Assembly (NCBI GenBank): GCA_033764315.1 | Contig: JANRJA010000038.1 | Coordinates: 1 to 49,474 of the forward strand | Source: Oculatellaceae cyanobacterium bins.114 | GTDB lineage: Bacteria; Cyanobacteriota; Cyanobacteriia; Elainellales; Elainellaceae | Reading direction: 5' to 3' | Length of the DNA: 49,474 nt | Shown here: piece after piece, positions 38,986-49,474 of the stretch | How positions within the stretch are numbered: position 1 is the stretch's first letter | Layout: every line of letters starts with the position of its first letter | The notes under the pieces: model-generated | What the model saw: only the letters and a program-made list of their open reading frames with translations | Databases searched by the model: none | Told to the model about the DNA's origin: nothing | Position numbers and translations under genes: made by a program

Positions 38986-40173
38986 ATGGGCGATCTATCT
39001 CTTTTAGCGGTCAGTCTGCTGCATCATAGCTCAGTCACCAAACAGCAAATTCCAGTCAATCTAGCGATCGCCACTGTTACATCGGCCTCAGCGGTGGATC
39101 AATTAGGGCAAGATGCCATCGGGCAAACCGTTGTCTCAATTTCTGGGACTGATGTTTCGACTTATGCCCCCGAATTTAGTTCAACAGAGACTGATCTCAG
39201 CGATCCATCAATGCCAGGTCAGTTAACGTCAGAGCAGTCTGTCGTCAATCAACCGATTGACTATCCTGAGGAGCAGACGATGGCTCAAAGCGTCTCCCCG
39301 CTTCAGCCGCGATCGCTGCAACGCTCACCTCAATCGTTGTCTCGCCCCTCTGCAACAAGTACACCCCTTGTTCCTCAAACTTCCACCATTCAACCGATTC
39401 CCACCTGGATAGAACCGTCAAACTTACCCAATCCAGAGTTCAGTGATCCCAATCCTGCGGCGACTCTCAGCACCCCTCGACCTAGCTCAGGAAGCCAACT
39501 CTATCGACAGCGGACGATCGCTTTGAGATCTGGACGAACCTATACTCGCTTACCTGCTAATAGTTATTGGGAGAGTTGGGTACAGGCAACGCAGCAACCT
39601 ACCTATGAACAGTGGGTTAGCCTTTTGTCTCAAGAAGCTGGGGCAATGGCCCGAGGACAAGGCTCCAATCGGTTAACTGTGTTGCTGGGAGATTCATTGT
39701 ATTTGTGGTATCCACCAGAGCGACTGGCCAGCGATCGCTTTTGGCTGAACCAGGGCATCTCAGGCGACACCACCACTGGGGTGCTGAGACGCTTATCCGC
39801 TTTTGCTCAAACTCGACCTGATACGATTCACGTTATGGTTGGGATCAACGATCTGCGACGAGGTGCGACAGATGCAGAGGTGATTAACAACTCTCGGCAA
39901 ATTATGCGACAACTGCGGCGCAACCACCCCCGCGCTCAAATTATCATTCACTCAATTTTGCCCACTCGTCTAGCCGCGATCCCCAGCGGCCGCATTCACC
40001 ACATCAACAACACAATTGCGGCGATCGCCAAACAAGAACAGGTGGAGTATCTCGATTTGCTTAATTACTTTGCTGATGCTCAAGGCAATTTGCGCCGAGA
40101 TTTAACCACTGATGGGTTGCATCTTAACCCACGTGGATATGCTACTTGGCAATGGGCGATGGCACATGGGTGA
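38986..40173 (+). CDS. SGNH/GDSL hydrolase with low-complexity N-terminus
   Basis: LGDS, NQGISGDTT, GINDL and DGLHLN blocks. Confidence 0.9.
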   Translation: MGDLSLLAVSLLHHSSVTKQQIPVNLAIATVTSASAVDQLGQDAIGQTVVSISGTDVSTYAPEFSSTETDLSDPSMPGQLTSEQSVVNQPIDYPEEQTMAQSVSPLQPRSLQRSPQSLSRPSATSTPLVPQTSTIQPIPTWIEPSNLPNPEFSDPNPAATLSTPRPSSGSQLYRQRTIALRSGRTYTRLPANSYWESWVQATQQPTYEQWVSLLSQEAGAMARGQGSNRLTVLLGDSLYLWYPPERLASDRFWLNQGISGDTTTGVLRRLSAFAQTRPDTIHVMVGINDLRRGATDAEVINNSRQIMRQLRRNHPRAQIIIHSILPTRLAAIPSGRIHHINNTIAAIAKQEQVEYLDLLNYFADAQGNLRRDLTTDGLHLNPRGYATWQWAMAHG

Positions 40174-40276
40174 GGATAGAAAAAAGCAAGCGATCGCCCT
40201 TGGTACTCATCTTGGTTTAATTGGGACTGTCAAGAGCGATCGCTTGTTAGCCTAACAACATCGGTAGTCCTAAACA

Positions 40277-40315
40277 AGTAAAGATATGCCGCGCGGAACG
40301 TGGCATATCTTTACT
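40277..40315. other. Strong hairpin between the GDSL gene and the Lrp gene
   Basis: AGTAAAGATATGCC-gcgcggaacgt-GGCATATCTTTACT. Confidence 0.6.
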
Positions 40316-40418
40316 CAAAAATCATTACTTTTAGAGTAGTACCACAAAATCTATTAAGACAGTTGAAAAAGGCAGTCCAAATTAGGTCTAAAATAGTGTA
40401 TCAGTGAGAAGCTTTAAC

Positions 40419-40913
40419 ATGACTGATTCAACTATTAATGGCGATTCAGTAGAGATTCAAAATTACGAAATCGATCAATTGGATCTAAACATTACTGAAT
40501 ATTTGCAAGCCGATGGACGCATTTCTTATAGCTATATTGCCCGCGAGATGGGAGTCCCTGAAGCGACAGTGCGCTATCGGGTAAAACGTCTACTGGATGA
40601 GGAAATCATCAAGATCAGTGCATTTATTAATACTGGAAAACTGAAATATGAAAATGTGGCTTATCTAGAGCTTGAAGTGGATCCAAGTTTTTTTGATGTC
40701 ACATTACATACTTTAGTGGAGATGGAAAAGATTAGTTATATTGCGTCTGTTACGGGTGAGTTTAATGTCATGATGGAATATGTCTATCATGACAACGATG
40801 ATTTATTAGAATTTTTAAATTTTATGAAAGCCAAGCATGACATTAAACGGCTTCATTCAAGGACGATCTTAAAAATTCACAAGGCACAATATCCAATTCG
40901 GGTGAAATCGTAA
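40419..40913 (+). CDS. Lrp/AsnC family transcriptional regulator
   Basis: IDQLDLNI..LQADGRISYS.IA..MGV.EATVRYRVKRL HTH and VTGEFN in the ligand domain. Confidence 0.93.
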   Translation: MTDSTINGDSVEIQNYEIDQLDLNITEYLQADGRISYSYIAREMGVPEATVRYRVKRLLDEEIIKISAFINTGKLKYENVAYLELEVDPSFFDVTLHTLVEMEKISYIASVTGEFNVMMEYVYHDNDDLLEFLNFMKAKHDIKRLHSRTILKIHKAQYPIRVKS

Positions 40914-40968
40914 AAGCGACGCCTATTGCTTCTAAATTTTCCTCACCCGCCAGGAGCAAGCAACCCTT

Positions 40969-41790
40969 TTATGGCTGCAAAATGGGAATCATGTTTCCTG
41001 GATAGGATTCGTTGTCGTTGGCGATCGCATTCCGTTCTAGTACTGATTCTAAATAGCGTTGCAATTCTAAGAAACTGGGATGGTATCGATCTCGAAATTC
41101 ACTCGCTGCAATTGAGACTTCTTCAATAATTCGTCCTGGGCGATCGCCAACCACAATCAACTTTTGCCCCAACAAGATGGCTTCTTCGACGTTGTGTGTC
41201 ACCAGTGTCATGGTTGTAGAGGTTTCTTGCCAGATTGCTAACAAAAAATCTTGGAGTCGTCGTCTGAGTTGCACATCTAGTGCAGAAAAAGGCTCATCGA
41301 GTAAGAGAACATCGGGTTTCACCGCAATCGAACGGGCGATCGCCACCCGTTGTTTCATTCCCCCTGAAAGCTGATGGGGATACAACTTGCGAGCATGGGA
41401 AAGCCCCACATGGTCGATTAAATCTCGAACTAAATGGCGATAGGTGACAGGTTGATCGCCTCTAACGTGAAAACCGAACCCAATATTCTGTTCCACCGTC
41501 ATCCACGGATACAGATTTTGATCTTGAAAGACCATCCCAATCTCAGGGGTTGTCCGTTTTAAAGTCTGCCCATGAAACAACACCTGCCCCGACGAAGGGG
41601 AAACAAAACCACCCATGAGCTTTAACAGCGTCGATTTACCACAACCCGACTGTCCCAAAATAGTGACAAAGTCGCCTGCCGTCAGATTGAGATTGACATC
41701 TTCGAGCACAACCGTTTCTTGCTGGCGATCGCCCGAAAACCGTTTATAGAGATGTTGACATGATAAGACAGGTGCAGGGGCTTGATGCAT
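40969..41790 (-). CDS. NitT/TauT-type ABC transporter ATP-binding protein
   Basis: GQSGCGKST, YPHQLSGGMKQR and DEPFSALD. Confidence 0.93.
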   Translation of the reverse strand: MHQAPAPVLSCQHLYKRFSGDRQQETVVLEDVNLNLTAGDFVTILGQSGCGKSTLLKLMGGFVSPSSGQVLFHGQTLKRTTPEIGMVFQDQNLYPWMTVEQNIGFGFHVRGDQPVTYRHLVRDLIDHVGLSHARKLYPHQLSGGMKQRVAIARSIAVKPDVLLLDEPFSALDVQLRRRLQDFLLAIWQETSTTMTLVTHNVEEAILLGQKLIVVGDRPGRIIEEVSIAASEFRDRYHPSFLELQRYLESVLERNAIANDNESYPGNMIPILQP

Positions 41791-41791
41791 C

Positions 41792-42598
41792 TCAGACTCT
41801 CCACCAAAAGAACTTTTGTTGAATCAGGAGCAGCAACCGATCTACCGCAAATCCGGTAATGCCAATAATGCAAATCCCCAACAAGATCAGATCGCTATTA
41901 AAAAGATTGCGCCCTGTCATTACAACTGCTCCTAAGCCATCACGTAGACCTGTCATTTCAGCGGCTAAGACTGCCATCCAGGCGGCAATAAAATTTAGTC
42001 GGAGTAAGGTAAACACACCCGGCAAGACCGCAGGCAAAATCACCATGCGCCAGCGATTAAACTCATTGCCACCCAAATTTTCGGCGGTGATTAACAGGTT
42101 CTCAGGAATCCGTTTGATCTCTGCCACTGTTGCAATGGTCAGAGTAAAGAAAACCCCCATAAACACAATAAATACCGCCGTCAGATTACTGACTCCAAAC
42201 ACTACTAATGCCAGTGGCACCCAAGCGATCGGTGCGATCGGTGCGATCAATCCTAAGATGGGCAGAATAAAAAGCTCAGACCACTTTGAGAGACTGATCA
42301 ACATGCCACACAGAACAGAACCTATAAAGGCGATCGCCATTCCCAAAAAGACGCGTACCAGAGTCACAAACACAGACTGGTAAATCGATGCTGATTGAGA
42401 CCCCAAACCAATTTTGAAATCGCTCTCAAATAAGACGGGTAAAAATCGAGAGGGAGGTGGCAAAACCTGGGTGACAGGATTGGCTGGATTAGAGCCAATC
42501 CACTCCCAAATTGCTACTAAAATTAGACAGGAAAAAATTCCACAACTAATCGACAAACTCGATTTTTTCCAACTCTGCCAAACCTGATGTGTATCCAT
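41792..42598 (-). CDS. NitT/TauT-type ABC transporter permease
   Basis: LPPPS, PIAPIAWVPL and AWMAVLAAEM..GLG. Confidence 0.92.
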   Translation of the reverse strand: MDTHQVWQSWKKSSLSISCGIFSCLILVAIWEWIGSNPANPVTQVLPPPSRFLPVLFESDFKIGLGSQSASIYQSVFVTLVRVFLGMAIAFIGSVLCGMLISLSKWSELFILPILGLIAPIAPIAWVPLALVVFGVSNLTAVFIVFMGVFFTLTIATVAEIKRIPENLLITAENLGGNEFNRWRMVILPAVLPGVFTLLRLNFIAAWMAVLAAEMTGLRDGLGAVVMTGRNLFNSDLILLGICIIGITGFAVDRLLLLIQQKFFWWRV

Positions 42599-42608
42599 TA
42601 GTTAGCTG

Positions 42609-43673
42609 TTATTGTTCTAACGTCTTAATGATAGAGACATCAAAAATTTTGTTAGCTGGAACATCTGCCTTGATATATCCCAGACTCACCATCTCATCGA
42701 CCACACTCTGAATCGCTACAAGATCGGGTGTGAAAGTGATAGGAGATGGCTGCGACGTAAATGCTTCTAACAGAACATCATTATCAACTCGGTAATAGTT
42801 ACCACCATTCAATAAATCAACAGCTTCTTGAGGAGTTTCATTAATGATTTTTGCTGCACACTGAAGTCCTTTGAGGTATGCTTCTACCACGTCTGGACGC
42901 TCTGCCAATGTCTTTTCCAACACACTCATGACTGTGTTTGGGGTAGTGGGAGACCAGATTTCGGCGTTGTCAGTAACTACTGTGGCAGTACCATCTTCTA
43001 CAAATTGTGTAGTGTAGGGTTTAATGTGGCTCAACAAATCAACTTGCCCCTGTCTAAAGGCTTCTACCATTGCCAACAGGTCATCAAAATAAACCATCTC
43101 AACGCTGTCTACTGAAATACCTTCTTTTTCAAAAGCATCCAATAAAATTAACTCTAACGTGTCGCCTCTCAAGGTAGCGATCTTCAAACGTGTATCTGGA
43201 TGGGCCGTGATATAGCTTGCCAAATCTTTGACTGATTTGATCTCATATTCGCTCTTGGCAATTACCTGCATAATGCCCCATCCCCCTGCTGCGGAAATGG
43301 TTTTGATGGGAACCCCACTACTAGCCGCAAAAAAAGGTAAGGTGAACGGGTTGACGTTGAAGTCTACTGCTCCTCCAGCAAGTGCCGCATTGTTGTCTCC
43401 CGGATTGGTAAATGCCACGGTTTCAACCGCTAGTCCGTTTTCTTGAAAGCACCCTGACTCAACTCCAACAAATAGTGGTGCCATGTCAAGCGCAACTAAA
43501 TGCCCCACCTTGACAGGAATTAATTCTTGAGTCTCACTCGCCTCTGTTGGGGTCGCCGCAGAGCTTTCAGGGGCAACGCTTTCAGTGGCGGGTTGTGTCG
43601 TTGTGCAGGAGGCGATCGCTACACTGACTGCCAGACTGGTCAAGGATAATGTAATTGTTCTTCTAGTCCACAT
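42609..43673 (-). CDS. NitT/TauT/NMT1-type substrate-binding lipoprotein
   Basis: Lipobox IASC; APLFVG.E.G.F.ENGL.VE; NMT1/SsuA-like pattern. Confidence 0.9.
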   Translation of the reverse strand: MWTRRTITLSLTSLAVSVAIASCTTTQPATESVAPESSAATPTEASETQELIPVKVGHLVALDMAPLFVGVESGCFQENGLAVETVAFTNPGDNNAALAGGAVDFNVNPFTLPFFAASSGVPIKTISAAGGWGIMQVIAKSEYEIKSVKDLASYITAHPDTRLKIATLRGDTLELILLDAFEKEGISVDSVEMVYFDDLLAMVEAFRQGQVDLLSHIKPYTTQFVEDGTATVVTDNAEIWSPTTPNTVMSVLEKTLAERPDVVEAYLKGLQCAAKIINETPQEAVDLLNGGNYYRVDNDVLLEAFTSQPSPITFTPDLVAIQSVVDEMVSLGYIKADVPANKIFDVSIIKTLEQ

Positions 43674-43819
43674 TACTCAAGTTCCCTCAAATATAGAGTT
43701 TCGATTAAGAGGCACAGGCTTAGACATCAACATTGGGATGGTTGGCACAGGGATTTACTGTGTAAAGCAATCACTGTGTAAAGCAATCATCCCCTAACCT
43801 CTTGACTAAATATGAAATG

Positions 43820-43862
43820 AAGGTAATTCATTCAAATAACATTTTTTGTAATGACATACACA
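43820..43862 (-). promoter_or_regulatory. NtcA-activated promoter of the ABC operon
   Basis: Minus strand TGTG-TATGTCAT-TACA (GTA-N8-TAC with one mismatch; TGT-N10-ACA intact), exactly 22 nt before TACCTT (TAN3T). Confidence 0.7.
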
Positions 43863-43956
43863 GAATCAGTGGGGAAATCGCTATTTTACTTAATGAATAA
43901 GCAAAACAGATTTAATTTATTGCTTATTCGCTAATATAGAAAATCTAATCCATCGT

Positions 43957-44031
43957 GCTGTCAATCAACCATGTTGCCAATCAACCATGTTGCCAATCAA
44001 TTACGTTGTCAATCAATTACGTTGTCAATCA
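43957..44031 (+). repeat. 16-bp tandem repeat, about 4.7 copies
   Basis: gctgtcaatcaaccat/gttgccaatcaaccat/gttgccaatcaattac/gttgtcaatcaattac/gttgtcaatca. Confidence 0.9.
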
Positions 44032-44408
44032 CGATTTACCAGGAGCAATGCATTTAATCACATTTAATCAATTGCGGTGATGTGCCGTGATTGCAAGCTC
44101 TAGGAGTTATAGCAACTGTCAAGATAGTCGATGTAAGGGGGTTTAGGGACTTTGCCCTTAACCAGTTTTTGGCCTGAGCACTCAAGCCAAAAGGGGCAGA
44201 ACCCTAACCCTAAGTAACCCTTTAATCGCTATCAATCTCCGCTTGGGTTTGGGTTTCAACTACACTCAACCCACACGACTCATGAAGGCGTTGACTGCAC
44301 TCAGCACAGTTTCTAAGATGCAAGATCTAAAGTCTGAGTTAATTTATGCATTGATTCATCTCAAATACTGCACCTACCTCAATTCATGATCTTTAGGATA
44401 GAAATGAC

Positions 44409-45011
44409 ATGGTTTTAACTTTGAATGCCAACTCAACTGCGTTGCTCGTGATTGACTTTCAGCAAGACATTTTTAATGGGGGACCACTGCAAACAGTTGG
44501 CTCCACTGAAGTGCTGCCAAAGGCAAAGTCTGTTCTATCAGTAACCCGCAATGCAGGACTACCAATTATCCATACAAAAGAAGTGCATCGCAAAGAAATG
44601 GTGGATTTTGGTCGAGAACTGGACGGATCGGAACCTGTTCATTGCCTTGAGACGTGGTCAGGAACTGATTTTCACTCAGAGTTATATCCTCAGGATGGCG
44701 AGTTTGCGATCGCCAAGCGGCGTTATAGTGCTTTTTTTGCAACCGATCTTGATCTATTACTGCGAGGACTTAAGATTGATACCTTGGTCATCATGGGAAC
44801 ATTGACAGATGTTTGTGTTCACTACACTACTGTTGATGCACATCAACATGACTACTTTGTCTATGTGATCGAAGATTGTTGTATGGGATCAACTTGGGAT
44901 GCTCACTGGGCTGCTTTAAACGCAATTAAATATCTTCAACGGAACTCTCGGATTACACATTTAGAATTTATCCAAGCTGTTTCAAACTTGTCAAAAGTTG
45001 CCTATTCTTAA
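44409..45011 (+). CDS. Isochorismatase-family cysteine hydrolase (amidase-like)
   Basis: Asp-Lys-Cys triad (VIDFQ, KRRYSAF, TDVCV) and PncA-like E-x-H...PVHC. Confidence 0.9.
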   Translation: MVLTLNANSTALLVIDFQQDIFNGGPLQTVGSTEVLPKAKSVLSVTRNAGLPIIHTKEVHRKEMVDFGRELDGSEPVHCLETWSGTDFHSELYPQDGEFAIAKRRYSAFFATDLDLLLRGLKIDTLVIMGTLTDVCVHYTTVDAHQHDYFVYVIEDCCMGSTWDAHWAALNAIKYLQRNSRITHLEFIQAVSNLSKVAYS

Positions 45012-45025
45012 CAGCACTACCTAAA

Positions 45026-45060
45026 TAGAAGTCGGAGTTTTGAGAAAACTCTGACTTCTA
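45026..45060. terminator. Hairpin between the convergent hydrolase and NHase operon
   Basis: TAGAAGTCGGAGTTTT-gag-AAAACTCTGACTTCTA. Confidence 0.7.
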
Positions 45061-45069
45061 AAAGGAGCC

Positions 45070-45402
45070 TTAATGTTTATGATCAGATTCACGTTCAGCG
45101 AGAAGTTCTGCAATCTTATACCGAATCAATTCTGGCTCCAATAATCCTTTAGCTGTCAGCAGTTTTTCGCATGCACTCACCCATTGTTCATAATAGGTTT
45201 TTGTACCAGGAGATTCTTTCTCAGTAGCTGCAATTTCACTGACTAAATAATCAGTCCACTCTGACCAACTGTAATGCTCAGAAGCAACGAGTTGATTAAC
45301 GATCGCAAATGCGCGGGCTTCCCAGGGAGCCTGAAAAACGAGTTCATCCTGGTCTGTTGGTAATCCTGATATGGAAGATGGATTAGTCGGGGAAGGAGTC
45401 AT
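45070..45402 (-). CDS. Nitrile hydratase accessory protein (P14K/NhlE-type)
   Basis: VFQAPWEARAFA, W.EW...L, YYEQWVSACEKLL and a C-terminal DHKH. Confidence 0.9.
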   Translation of the reverse strand: MTPSPTNPSSISGLPTDQDELVFQAPWEARAFAIVNQLVASEHYSWSEWTDYLVSEIAATEKESPGTKTYYEQWVSACEKLLTAKGLLEPELIRYKIAELLAERESDHKH

Positions 45403-45405
45403 GGC

Positions 45406-45774
45406 TTAAATCGCTTCAAGATGATCATCAAATAGGTCAATATAAAGGCAGTCTTGAGCGGGGGCATCGGCTCCCCACAACTCTTGTGCAGTAAACCGGA
45501 CGCTGTAAACGTGCTGAGGTTTTGGCCCTATCCGCTGCCCCATTGTGTCTGGAAACACGTAAACCCCATGATCTTTGGCGATCGCACCAATCTTGCCTCG
45601 GACATAACGCGGTAAACGGGTGTAGGTGTGAGGGTGCATCACCTTGGCTCGGACGCGATCGCCCACCTGAAAAAGAGCAGGAGCATCGATCTCTGCCTGA
45701 CAACTCAGACCGTCTCGTAGCAAGGCTTCAGCCTGTTCAACCGTCATGCATTCATTACTGGTTTCAATGGGCAT
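45406..45774 (-). CDS. Nitrile hydratase beta subunit, C-terminal (SH3-like) half
   Basis: FQVGDRVR, TRLPRYVRGK.G, VFPDT and YSVRF.AQELWG. Confidence 0.88.
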   Translation of the reverse strand: MPIETSNECMTVEQAEALLRDGLSCQAEIDAPALFQVGDRVRAKVMHPHTYTRLPRYVRGKIGAIAKDHGVYVFPDTMGQRIGPKPQHVYSVRFTAQELWGADAPAQDCLYIDLFDDHLEAI

Positions 45775-45798
45775 AGGACTTGATACTCTTTGCTAAAT

Positions 45799-46098
45799 TC
45801 ACGCTTTAAGTTGTGCAATGCGTTCTTCGATCTCGGCTGGTGTCACTAAATTGTGTTCGGTAATCAATAGCTCCAGGGCATACAGCCAGCGTTCGTAATA
45901 GCGGGAACTGAGATAGTCACCTGCTGGCATTCGTTCTGAGGCGTGTCGGGTTTCATCCACTGGGAAATAGTTGCCAAACGTGGCAAAACTCATGGCAAAT
46001 ACCTTCGCTTCCCATTCGGAGTGAAAGACGGGTTCATTCTCTTCAATCGGGATAGCACCCAGGTTATGCATCCCGCCCATATCGTGTGGACCGTTCAT
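45799..46098 (-). CDS. Nitrile hydratase beta subunit, N-terminal half
   Basis: MNGPHDMGG, VFHSEWEAKVFA, DETRHASERM and YYERWL. Confidence 0.9.
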   Translation of the reverse strand: MNGPHDMGGMHNLGAIPIEENEPVFHSEWEAKVFAMSFATFGNYFPVDETRHASERMPAGDYLSSRYYERWLYALELLITEHNLVTPAEIEERIAQLKA

Positions 46099-46109
46099 CG
46101 AGCAATCTC

Positions 46110-46730
46110 CTAAGCCGCAAGTTCAGTCAGAGAATCGGGAGGCAAAACTTTGGCAGTGCCAATCATGGCATTGCGTGTTACCAGGGCAGCTAACGCCTCT
46201 TCTGTCATGCCTTCTGTGCCATGAGGACGTTCTGGTAGCACCAGATAACGTAAGTCGGCATTGCTATCCCAAACGCGCACTTCGACCTGTTCTGGAATGT
46301 CTAACCCAAATTCTCGCAGCACACTACGTGGCTCAATCACTGCACGAGAACGGTAGGCAAAGGATTTGTACCAGGTGGGAGGTAAGCCTAAAATCGCCCA
46401 GGGATAGCAAGAACAGAGGGTACACACGATCAAGTTATGTACCTCTGGTGTATTTTCGACGACCACCATGTGTTCGCTAGAAAAACCTGTTAAACCGAGT
46501 TCAGCGATCGCCCCTGTACCATCTGCCAGCAATCGCTGTTTAAACTCTGGATCAACCCATGCTTTAGCAACGATGCGTGCCCCATTGTGAGGGCCAATTT
46601 TGTGTTCGTAGGCATCATTAATGGCATCACGTGTACCGGGATCGACAATTCCTTTTTCGACTAAAAGCGACTCGATCGCTTTGACACGAAGGGCAATATC
46701 AGCTTCGGGGGGATGATCGTGAGAACTCAT
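46110..46730 (-). CDS. nthA: Cobalt-type nitrile hydratase alpha subunit
   Basis: [10 protein letters not shown] metal site (Thr/Tyr signature of the Co type), [12 protein letters not shown] and WYKS.AYRSR. Confidence 0.95.
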
Positions 46731-46852
46731 GACAGTTTGTATTACAAGTAGCCGAGAGGGAATGGGAACGGAAGATTTAGACTTGATTTTACCAGGGTTG
46801 CCTATTGTGCCAAAGTAAGTTCTGTAGCAGTTCTAAAACATTTTAGAGAGAA

Positions 46853-47428
46853 TCAGCTCCAAAAGATTTTACTGAGATCCAGTAAGATACCTGAAAAGTT
46901 AGGCAACTCAACCTGTTCGTGGCGCAATGAAATATGTTTTGATCGATACCCAAACTCCCCAGTTGCTTTCTGATAGGGTTCAGAATATTGCTCTAGGCAG
47001 CGATCAACTAAATTCACAATCCAATAGTGTTGAATCTGATTCTCTGCATAGAGCGACAATTTCGTGGTTTGGTCATAATCCAACGATGAATCAGAGACCT
47101 CAATGATCAACACAATGTCGTCTGGATAGGGGTGAGTTGATAGATAGAGATCATCTCGAAATCGAACAATAGCAAAATCAGGTTCAGGCTCGCTATCAAG
47201 CGGCAAAATAACAGGTCCTTGGTTGCGAACTAAAGCACAATCCCTTAATAAGGGAAGCAATTCATACAACAGACGAGTATTGCAAACCGAGTGAGGGGTT
47301 CCCTTGGCTGCCATTTGAATCAACTCTCCCCGAATCAGCTCAATGCGATCGCCCTCTGCAAAAAATTTCAGGTCGATCAGACGGTGATAGTCGTTTAACG
47401 TGAAGCGTTTGGGGGTAACAGCTGTCAT
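46853..47428 (-). CDS. Uma2 family endonuclease
   Basis: RIELIRGEL, SEPEPD, IIEVSDSSL.YD...K..LYA and YWIVNL. Start probably MTAVTPKRF (the ORF opens at 47446). Confidence 0.9.
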   Translation of the reverse strand: MTAVTPKRFTLNDYHRLIDLKFFAEGDRIELIRGELIQMAAKGTPHSVCNTRLLYELLPLLRDCALVRNQGPVILPLDSEPEPDFAIVRFRDDLYLSTHPYPDDIVLIIEVSDSSLDYDQTTKLSLYAENQIQHYWIVNLVDRCLEQYSEPYQKATGEFGYRSKHISLRHEQVELPNFSGILLDLSKIFWS

Positions 47429-47574
47429 AGGGACACAACCAAACATCTAACTGCTTTGAACTCAGCATAACGGATCGAAGTCAGAAGCGATCGCGATGAT
47501 ATATGAGCTTAGCAACTTACCCGACAAGATAGCTGTAAGATAAAGAGCGATCGCCCTTCATTATTAATCTCTGC

Positions 47575-48600
47575 ATGTCTCGCTCGGTTGCTCTGCGTTA
47601 TTACATTCTGTCGCGGATCTTATTAGCACCCTTAATGATTTGGGTGCTGATTACCCTCGTGTTTTTGTTGCTGAGAGCGACTCCTGGCGATCCGGTAGAT
47701 GTGATCTTAGGGTCGCGTGCTCCCGAAGAGGCAAAAATAGCGTTGCGATCGCGTCTGGGGTTAGATGACCCGTTGTGGTTGCAATACCTTCACTATTTAG
47801 GCGATTTGCTGCGGTTTGATTTGGGCACGTCGTTGACGACGCAGGGACAATCGGTGTGGCACATCATTCAGCAATACTTTCCGGCGACAGTCGAGCTAAC
47901 GGTCTTTAGCATGATTGTCTCAGTGGTTGTGGGAGTGAGCATTGGCGCGATCGCAGCCTCTAAACCCAATACTCCACTGGATGCGGGGGGACGGTTGTTT
48001 GGCATCGTCACCTACGCTGTGCCGACTTACTGGTTTGGCATGATTTTACAGCTTATTTTTGCAGTGCAGTTGCGCTGGTTTCCGATTGGCACTCGCTTTC
48101 CGTTAACTGCAGATCCACCCGTGGTGCGAACAGGGTTATATCTGGTGGATAGCTTACTTCAGGGCAATCTCAACGCTTTTTTTACTAGTTTGTACTACCT
48201 GACGCTTCCCAGCTTGACGTTGGGCATTTTGCTGAGTGGCATCTTTGAACGCATCGTCCGGGTAAACCTGAAGCAAACCCTGCGGGCAGATTATGTCGAA
48301 GCAGCACGGGCACGCGGCATTTCAGAACCCCGCATTGTCATCGCTCACGCACTCAAAAATGCCATGATTCCAGTGATTACGGTGTTGGGATTAACAGTGG
48401 CATCGTTGCTGGGTGGAGCGATTTTAACGGAAGTGACTTTCTCTTGGCCTGGGTTAGCCAATCGTTTATATGAGGCAATTTCATTTCGCGATTACCCTGT
48501 TGTGCAAGGCATCATGGTGTTTTTTGGCATCATCGTGGCGATCGCCAGTATTGTGATCGACATTCTCAATGCCTACATCGACCCCCGAATTCGGTATTAA
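47575..48600 (+). CDS. Peptide/nickel ABC transporter permease (DppB/OppB type)
   Basis: PGDPV, LGLDDPL..QY, ARARG, HALKNA.IP, TEVTFSWPG and DPRIRY. Confidence 0.92.
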   Translation: MSRSVALRYYILSRILLAPLMIWVLITLVFLLLRATPGDPVDVILGSRAPEEAKIALRSRLGLDDPLWLQYLHYLGDLLRFDLGTSLTTQGQSVWHIIQQYFPATVELTVFSMIVSVVVGVSIGAIAASKPNTPLDAGGRLFGIVTYAVPTYWFGMILQLIFAVQLRWFPIGTRFPLTADPPVVRTGLYLVDSLLQGNLNAFFTSLYYLTLPSLTLGILLSGIFERIVRVNLKQTLRADYVEAARARGISEPRIVIAHALKNAMIPVITVLGLTVASLLGGAILTEVTFSWPGLANRLYEAISFRDYPVVQGIMVFFGIIVAIASIVIDILNAYIDPRIRY

Positions 48601-49295: not shown

Positions 49296-49339
49296 TATCT
49301 CTAGACAAGGCTCTTTAAAGACAAAGCCTAAAACTACTT

Positions 49340-49474
49340 AGAACCTATCCGAAAACGTCTCAATGGGTGAGATGCTTTTAAGAAGGATGTTTCAGGGATT
49401 AACGAGCGATGTCCTTCACAGAGATCAACCCTGCCTATCGATTGCCAGATGAGGTATGGGAACGGGTTCATCAT
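49340..49474 (+). mobile_element. Left end of an IS5-family element; transposase starts at 49409 (partial)
   Basis: AGAACCTATCCGAAAA terminus-like sequence, then MSFTEINPAYRLPDEVWERVHH, matching the L-x-D-E-x-W N-terminal motif of IS5-family (IS427/IS1031-like) transposases. Confidence 0.65.

Follow-up and report, generated by a model that had tools for sequence, protein, structure and literature searches.

A contig of 49,474 nucleotides (nt) from an Elainellaceae cyanobacterium with a 6.64-Mb genome (JANRJA010000038.1; this whole stretch is the window) carries, at 40419-46730, nine intact contiguous genes that combine an ABC importer, a cobalt-type nitrile hydratase (NHase), and a cysteine hydrolase. 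We propose that they are one version of a mobile module that scavenges nitrogen from a small, polar N-cyano compound such as cyanoguanidine (dicyandiamide) or a close analogue, a reading we consider on balance probable for the module family. The case for the window is weaker because its hydrolase and NHase lineages differ from the proteobacterial ones: as judged from sequence, some route from an N-cyano compound to a ureide is likely here, and the cyanoguanidine route proper has a little less than an even chance. A preliminary description of this DNA had proposed that an unspecified polar nitrile or amide is imported, hydrated, and deamidated. Every gene it named is in place, family scans with profile cut-offs concur on their identities, and co-occurrence of the parts speaks for its scheme, but the supposed amidase is more likely a ureide hydrolase and the nitrile probably N-cyano.

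A recurrent module of importer, nitrile hydratase and hydrolase

To follow the module across genomes, we used an alignment scan of GTDB genomes anchored on the substrate-binding protein and independent of the NHase, which covers 80 of 97 confirmed loci. Cyanobacteria account for 39 of these, and the remaining 41 come nearly all from alpha-, beta-, and gamma-proteobacteria. Genes for NHase alpha and an isochorismatase-like hydrolase adjoin the binding-protein gene in 31 of the 39 cyanobacterial and 29 of the 41 other loci, and most loci missing either gene are contig ends. The preliminary description had staked its scheme on transporter and hydrolase accompanying NHase in other genomes, and so they do. 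Proteobacterial importer, NHase, and hydrolase genes abut in one co-directional string; in the window the genes form four transcription units, not a single operon: lrp (+), ABC (-), hydrolase (+), and NHase (-). At 77 control loci with the next-closest metagenome NHases, many on short contigs, neither the binding protein nor the carboxyguanidine deiminase CgdAB was found.

The window's exact layout recurs on two mat metagenome contigs, in Elainella saxicola, and on a Gloeocapsopsis dulcis plasmid, where it sits beside an integrase and IS6 copies; proteobacterial versions lie on Stutzerimonas and Klebsiella plasmids. NHase alpha matches occur in 8 of 61 relatives and 7 of 401 genomes of the phylum, mostly of a second NHase type, and the search of one complete (100%) genome of the same genus found none. 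Overall, the module has a sparse and patchy distribution, is mobile, and is not specific to cyanobacteria. Its carriers range from cyanobacteria of deserts and mats and a Prochlorococcus single-cell genome to proteobacteria of the sea, soil, and wastewater; those in culture include Leptolyngbya sp. PCC 6406, Nodosilinea sp. P-1105, Gloeocapsopsis dulcis, and Rhodopseudomonas telluris. The many HIP1 sites of the locus had been taken as a sign of long residence. There are 10 (1.58/kb compared with 1.61/kb genome-wide, where chance would give 0.06), an enrichment that is real yet average for the host genome and that would record time spent in HIP1-bearing cyanobacteria, not in this lineage. Long residence finds no support in the missing same-genus match, in the plasmid copy with its integrase and IS6 elements, or in the low third-position GC content of lrp, the hydrolase, and the accessory gene (lowest 1-3% among the genome's long open reading frames).

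The importer is encoded on the minus strand by a NitT/TauT-type ATPase gene (40969-41790; below the TauB and NrtCD cut-offs), a permease gene (41792-42598), and the gene for a substrate-binding lipoprotein of the NMT1/SsuA fold, the module's anchor (42609-43673), all recognized by family scan. The binding-protein family, as yet uncharacterised, is highly conserved, with 60% identity between phyla and 102 positions invariant across three host groups; these include D63, D93, D171, E174, D198, H58, H216, and K218, several of them acidic. The protein falls below the SsuA and TauA cut-offs, shares 24% identity with the GimA-like protein encoded in the same genome, and appears to represent a family distinct from GimA, NrtA/CmpA, SsuA, and TauA. 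Its model (pLDDT 91) matches the listed PDB folds at 11-21% identity, and fold searches with the binding-protein and hydrolase models returned the fold only, with no ligand-bound close relative.

The NtcA-type promoter that had been assigned to the importer stands; it extends neither to the NHase nor to the hydrolase. By motif search, the importer-hydrolase intergenic region contains a single NtcA-like site, a GTG-N8-TAC variant at 43848-43861 (-), one mismatch from the consensus and 22 nt upstream of a TAN3T -10 box at 43820-43825 (-). We surveyed 44 cyanobacterial loci, 43 of them with upstream DNA (L102 and L103 are near-duplicates), finding an NtcA-type box 21-22 nt before a TAN3T upstream of the binding-protein gene in 40 of the 43, in 6 cases as a perfect GTA-N8-TAC, where chance would give this geometry 0.009 times per 420 nt. 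The misses are L048 and L051, both also without NHase nearby, and the Prochlorococcus locus, which has the box without a -10. Across the same loci this geometry occurred once upstream of the hydrolase and never upstream of alpha or lrp. NtcA control of the importer only is well supported as a prediction from promoter conservation, and induction would follow from it; a partial-consensus NtcA site likewise drives the guanidine importer gimABC in Synechocystis (PMC12704784; here and below, published work is cited from the available part of each source). The Lrp/AsnC-family regulator gene (40419-40913, +; ATG at 40419, with GTG 40404 as an alternative; PF13404 above cut-off) converges on the ABC operon. 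An orthologue lies near the binding-protein gene in 29 of the 39 cyanobacterial loci and none of the 41 others, in 33 of which LysR stands in its stead; when the DNA upstream of alpha was searched for an Lrp site, nothing emerged beyond the coding start of the divergent hydrolase.

All NHase genes lie on the minus strand. Alpha (46110-46730) exceeds the TIGR01323 cut-off (307 versus 249.85 bits), carries the motif C103-T-L-C106-S-C108, and finds its best genuine PDB matches among Co-type enzymes, and the P14K/NhlE-type accessory protein (45070-45402; TIGR03889, 71.7 bits versus a cut-off of 46) supplies the expected activator gene. The preliminary description was right about Co-type alpha, beta, and accessory genes, with one correction: beta is encoded by two genes. 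Its N-terminal half (45799-46098, 99 aa, PF21006) aligns to Co-type beta residues 1-92 and its C-terminal half (45406-45774, 122 aa, PF02211) to residues 102-217; neither half alone reaches the TIGR03888 cut-off, and together they keep, in alignment to PDB beta chains, both Arg positions and the Tyr positions that we take to be catalytic and active-site residues. A frameshift or sequencing error was ruled out because the 24-nt gap between the halves contains a second in-frame stop and because all 30 cyanobacterial loci that could be assessed show the split; beta is fused in 30 of 32 others. In the N-terminal half, Thr replaces the usual Phe preceding the catalytic Arg, and a polar residue (Thr or His) does so in both module NHase clades. 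The window NHase is a predicted three-chain Co-type enzyme, its class given by these features and its substrate proposed from context. Thiocyanate hydrolase (ScnABC) was rejected as an identity, with TIGR03887 gamma at 196 versus 291 bits and PDB matches much weaker than to NHases.

Hydrolase lineages and links to guanidine metabolism

The usual module hydrolases belong to the ureide-hydrolase clade of BiuH, TrtA, and GuuH and score below the BiuH cut-off. In BiuH and TrtA, residues Q215 and Q202 contact the substrate (PMC7948467). At this position Glu is found in 57 of 57 module hydrolases, from three lineages, in 2 plasmid copies, and in the pMET-2 hydrolase; Gln is found in 6 of 6 related non-module hydrolases (from four biuret/triuret-type plasmid loci) and in the BiuH-/TrtA-like proteins of the window's own genome. 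Work by Tassoulas in 2021 reportedly made this Glu a mark of guanylurea specificity in GuuH. We infer that the pMET-2 hydrolase is the validated guanylurea hydrolase BB_00025 because it is an isochorismatase-like hydrolase adjoining a nucleoside deaminase, as PMC9800807 describes. Glu-type module hydrolases and the pMET-2 enzyme form no supported joint clade in a quick tree, the method used for both the hydrolase and the NHase phylogenies. Assignment of the Glu-type hydrolases to BiuH itself was rejected on score (206-305 versus 370 bits), on the Glu in place of Gln215, and on the absent Lys145.

The window's hydrolase (44409-45011, +) is an isochorismatase-like cysteine hydrolase by family scan and alignment, with Asp16, Lys103, and Cys136, a Glu58-His60-His78 set, and an invariant H78-C79 pair. 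It is 34% identical to the pMET-2 enzyme and lacks the Glu typical of GuuH, which lowers its membership in GuuH, not the claim that it performs the same step. Hydrolases of this type accompany the binding-protein gene at 7 of the 39 cyanobacterial loci, where they would be non-orthologous stand-ins for the usual Glu-type enzyme. In the model-based fold search its best match was an uncharacterised hydrolase, followed by BiuH, and an ESM Atlas search returned only isochorismatase clusters. Biuret hydrolase was rejected as its identity (NF050097, 93 versus 370 bits), as was nicotinamidase PncA (NF008623, 73.7 versus 174 bits), an enzyme with an Asp-His-His metal site; the Glu-x-His of the window's hydrolase is one that enzymes of the BiuH clade have as well. 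Taken together, these data on the hydrolases favour a predicted ureide (N-carbamoyl) hydrolase activity over that of a common carboxamide amidase, which makes an N-cyano compound the probable nitrile.

Window-type hydrolases were found in 20 other cyanobacterial genomes. In 17 contexts examined, their usual neighbours are genes for a GimA-like importer, a type III glutamine synthetase (GS III), creatininase-family and metallo-beta-lactamase (MBL)-fold proteins, and Rieske proteins. The window's own genome has a glutamine-synthetase/creatininase cluster (C49:11246-17127) without a window-type hydrolase, which suggests that the hydrolase was recruited into the module. This cluster of GS III, creatininase, MBL-fold, Rieske oxygenase, and GimA-like genes, which elsewhere includes the window-type hydrolase, is conserved in cyanobacteria (L225, L228-L233, L236-L238, and C49) and possibly serves catabolism of methylated guanidines or ureas.

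A link to guanidine is seen in 6 Burkholderiales-type loci, where genes passing TIGR03425/03424 stand between binding protein and permease; this family has been identified as carboxyguanidine deiminase, CgdAB (PMC11410670). CgdA/CgdB-family genes lie within the locus in 14 of the 41 non-cyanobacterial loci and 1 of the 39 cyanobacterial ones. In Sodalis and Endobugula such genes directly follow the module, and Marinobacter, Roseibium, and a Leptolyngbya have them in guanidine operons that diverge from it. Of the 41 non-cyanobacterial carrier genomes, 37 have CgdB above its cut-off; among other Pseudomonadota, 31 of 300 do (32 of 301 if the centre genome is counted), and kin are not independent in these counts. 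CgdB is also present in 4 of 5 window-type genomes without a GdmH match. Guanidine riboswitches were found in 5 of 8 loci chosen for Cgd genes, among them L032, which has a window-type hydrolase and adjoins both a guanidine-I riboswitch and CgdAB. An Rfam scan of the window at 39000-48000 found no riboswitch; elsewhere, the genome encodes urease and has a guanidine-I riboswitch ahead of a GdmH-like gene that is accompanied by hypAB-like and ABC genes. GdmH matches occur in 33 of 40 cyanobacterial carriers versus 142 of 300 genomes of the class.

Proposed pathway and alternatives

Under nitrogen limitation, NtcA would turn on the ABC importer, a step that rests on promoter conservation. The three-chain Co NHase, matured by its accessory protein, would hydrate N-C≡N to N-CO-NH2, converting cyanoguanidine to guanylurea, and the cysteine hydrolase would cut the terminal ureide to give NH3 and carboxyguanidine, which would lose CO2 to yield guanidine. 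Cyanoguanidine is the simplest candidate substrate of the NHase because its hydration product would suit both a guanylurea-type hydrolase and CgdAB downstream. Hydration of an N-cyano group to a urea is documented for Co-NHases, as with sulfoxaflor (PMC13243292), and cyanoguanidine, a fertiliser additive, degrades to guanylurea (PMC11410670); cleavage of guanylurea to carboxyguanidine is shown, in the literature available, for GuuH only. Guanidine could then pass to the genome's riboswitch-preceded GdmH-like hydrolase and to urease, both encoded, freeing all four nitrogens, and in proteobacterial carriers CgdAB would act on carboxyguanidine in GdmH's stead. Lrp probably ties NHase and hydrolase expression to the substrate. 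Carry-over of this chemistry to the window is favoured by the pairing of split-beta NHases with Glu-type hydrolases in most cyanobacterial loci, the 102 invariant binding-protein positions, the polar Thr/His in the NHases, and the riboswitch and CgdAB at L032.

Several observations weigh against the cyanoguanidine pathway. In the quick tree, a clade of their own separates the split-beta NHases from those of the proteobacterial modules, so that the window enzyme need not have the same substrate; the window's hydrolase belongs to an uncharacterised subfamily, a fourth distant lineage outside the BiuH/TrtA/GuuH clade in which the Glu-bearing loop is absent, and relatives of that hydrolase mostly lie away from NHase genes. 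Binding proteins of window-type and Glu-type cyanobacterial loci differ at 17 fixed positions. Importers without NHase occur in L048, L086, L090, L092, and L101. The six loci with CgdAB inside the operon are related, three sharing an identical NHase and hydrolase and L090 lacking NHase, and the Cgd enrichment may reflect a nitrogen-scavenging lifestyle. In well-sampled families of the class GdmH is present in 19 of 25, 21 of 25, and 13 of 17 genomes, carriers being no higher, and its co-occurrence is uninformative against this family background and permissive only. The main gap is ecological: the literature names cyanoguanidine as a fertiliser additive only, and the module's habitats and divergence, with 60% binding-protein identity across phyla, imply an older natural ligand.

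Another N-cyano substrate for the window variant, such as an N-alkyl cyanamide, cyanamide, cyanourea, or dicyanamide, would be converted to the matching urea and on to amine, CO2, and NH3 without guanidine. We consider this rather unlikely, although hydrolase and NHase are both exchanged relative to the proteobacteria, the genome has BiuH-/TrtA-like genes and urease, and window-type hydrolase relatives cluster with TIGR03105 GS III and creatininase-family genes, which would fit an N-alkylurea hydrolase (the TIGR03105 family includes gamma-glutamylmethylamide synthetase). The binding protein argues otherwise, its invariant positions holding in all host groups, as does the guanidine context of L032; biuret as the product is opposed by the Glu-type hydrolase that fills the same slot in 28 cyanobacterial loci. 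A generic route, from a polar C-nitrile such as cyanopyridine or beta-cyanoalanine through a carboxamide to acid and ammonium by a nicotinamidase-like hydrolase, strikes us as unlikely. The H78-C79 pair is reminiscent of nicotinamidases, PncA gives a weak match, Co-NHases are broad-range, and the locus has an Lrp/AsnC regulator, a family that usually senses amino acids. The hydrolase is nevertheless far below the PncA cut-off, its best folds are the uncharacterised hydrolase and then BiuH, the slot otherwise holds enzymes of the ureide-hydrolase clade, and CgdAB inside the operon would be left unexplained.

We give still less credence to a nitrogen-scavenging island in which the importer brings guanylurea or another guanidino compound to the hydrolase while the NHase serves freely diffusing nitriles under separate control. 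The NtcA promoter on the importer only would suit it, as would the two or three NHase paralogues and further importers often found in these regions, L090 with importer and CgdAB without NHase, and L022 and L023, which keep importer and hydrolase without NHase. Both of the latter look decayed: L023 has its ATPase gene broken by a transposase-like open reading frame and its NHase gone, and L022 retains the accessory gene, with alpha and beta gone. This arrangement is hard to square with the single co-directional string of abutting genes in proteobacteria, with the nine-gene set moving as a unit on the Gloeocapsopsis plasmid, and with the recruitment of two different NHase clades to the same importer.

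A more general form of the cyanoguanidine pathway, which we would only narrowly bet against, is that it is widespread and old: imported cyanoguanidine or a natural N-cyano-guanidine would be processed by a dedicated Co NHase, with carboxyguanidine passing to CgdAB or via guanidine to GdmH, and the parts would have been assembled more than once around one binding-protein family, with two NHase clades, four hydrolase lineages, and Lrp or LysR.

Relation to known systems, side observations and significance

The NHase resembles the Co-type enzymes with P14K/NhlE of Pseudomonas putida and Pseudonocardia thermophila (PDB 3qxe and 1ire) in its alpha metal motif, beta Arg/Tyr positions, and accessory gene, and differs in its two beta genes, its Thr for Phe, and its isochorismatase-like hydrolase with a binding-protein importer. 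The usual partner in Co-NHase operons is an amidase-signature amidase. Three-subunit NHases have a precedent in the toyocamycin enzyme, ToyJKL. The beta halves are likewise separate genes in Streptomyces canus AnhD/AnhE/AnhA (PMC7329996), where the order is D-E-A with no activator described, compared with alpha-betaN-betaC plus an accessory gene in the window; both of these enzymes were compared by description. A toyocamycin/preQ0-type hydratase, raised by the split beta, found no support in gene content, as no deazapurine genes were among the families recurring in at least 5 of 82 loci. In Limnospira (Arthrospira) PCC 8005, an NHase encoded by nthE-nthA-nthB is induced under nitrogen limitation and described as allowing use of nitrile nitrogen (PMC4509649, PMC8400943); by description it has one beta gene listed and no importer or hydrolase, and it may be the second cyanobacterial type (fused beta, CobW, DUF1097, HupE), which has its own clade in the quick tree. 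The GuuH pathway with guanidine carboxylase, CgdAB, and AtzF (PMC9800807, PMC11446756) shares the hydrolase family, the Glu of the module's usual hydrolases, and the CgdAB linkage; as far as these sources describe it, it acts on metformin-derived guanylurea and has no NHase. GimABC-GdmH of Synechocystis PCC 6803 (PMC12704784) also has an NtcA-driven NitT/TauT-type importer with a partial-consensus site and is the proposed downstream sink, although the window's binding protein and GimA belong to different families.

Several cyanobacterial nitrile islands (L010/L011 at G044:C12 117-127 kb, L027, L028, L040, L046, and L053) carry 2-3 adjacent NHase paralogues. Besides the split-beta type, these are a fused-beta type accompanied by CobW, DUF1097, and HupE/UreJ and members of a third, divergent clade that has a NitT/TauT importer to itself. 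At L016 (G005:C31 8.5-18.5 kb), a PotABCD-like importer is flanked by a Glu-type hydrolase and by an Lrp that shares 60% identity with the one in the window; the importer adjoins a fused-beta CobW/DUF1097 NHase, hinting that the second NHase type may share the module chemistry. A 560-aa tandem carbon-nitrogen hydrolase (L081:7107-8789) adjoins the module there and in 15 other loci (including L086, L092, and L184), accompanied by a sigma-54 activator and a binding protein of a second family. Two Polyangia loci lack NHase and have this hydrolase after the module importer. On a Klebsiella wastewater plasmid (L184; NZ_CP056226.1, 28-48 kb), the module lies among transposons, and its neighbours are a guanidine-type binding protein (TIGR03427) and another Glu-type hydrolase. 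The single-cell genome of Prochlorococcus sp. AG-355-J09 (L054, L260) has a diverged module copy, a GdmH-like operon with importer, and, on another contig, Nit1C-like genes. The window's own genome has several organic-nitrogen scavenging routes, among them a nitrilase cluster that we take to be Nit1C-like (C96:26489-31281) and a BiuH/TrtA-type cluster with a BMP-type importer (C87:6412-15090). Within the window, short tandem repeats of caatcaa...ttgc/ttgt units, presumably cyanobacterial STRR elements, occupy 43960-44032 between importer and hydrolase, and dispersed repeats with many genomic copies lie just before lrp (40263-40350, 80-90 nt) and at the contig end after a lexA-like gene (49330-49474).

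NHase under nitrogen control in cyanobacteria, three-subunit NHases, GuuH, CgdAB, and GimABC-GdmH are already known. The preliminary description knew of no characterised cyanobacterial pathway of this layout; a nitrogen-regulated cyanobacterial NHase had already been reported (PMC4509649), and the module is not confined to cyanobacteria. In the literature searched, which largely leaves subscription papers outside its coverage, we found no description of an importer-NHase-hydrolase module or of an NHase-guanidine link, and no paper tying the step from dicyandiamide to guanylurea to a gene, so that the parts are known and the combination and the substrate proposal appear new. For most NHases, to our knowledge, no natural substrate is known. 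Where free guanidine comes from is, according to recent reviews, largely unexplained (PMC12623156, PMC12186494). For experiments, the module narrows the question to a few proteins and a single inexpensive compound. If the proposed pathway holds, dicyandiamide breakdown would have its genes, NHases would have a class of natural substrates, and guanidine in the environment would have a new source upstream; the window would contribute another guanylurea-hydrolase subfamily, unrelated to the first. The spread of the module across habitats would then imply an overlooked N-cyano pool in the nitrogen cycle.

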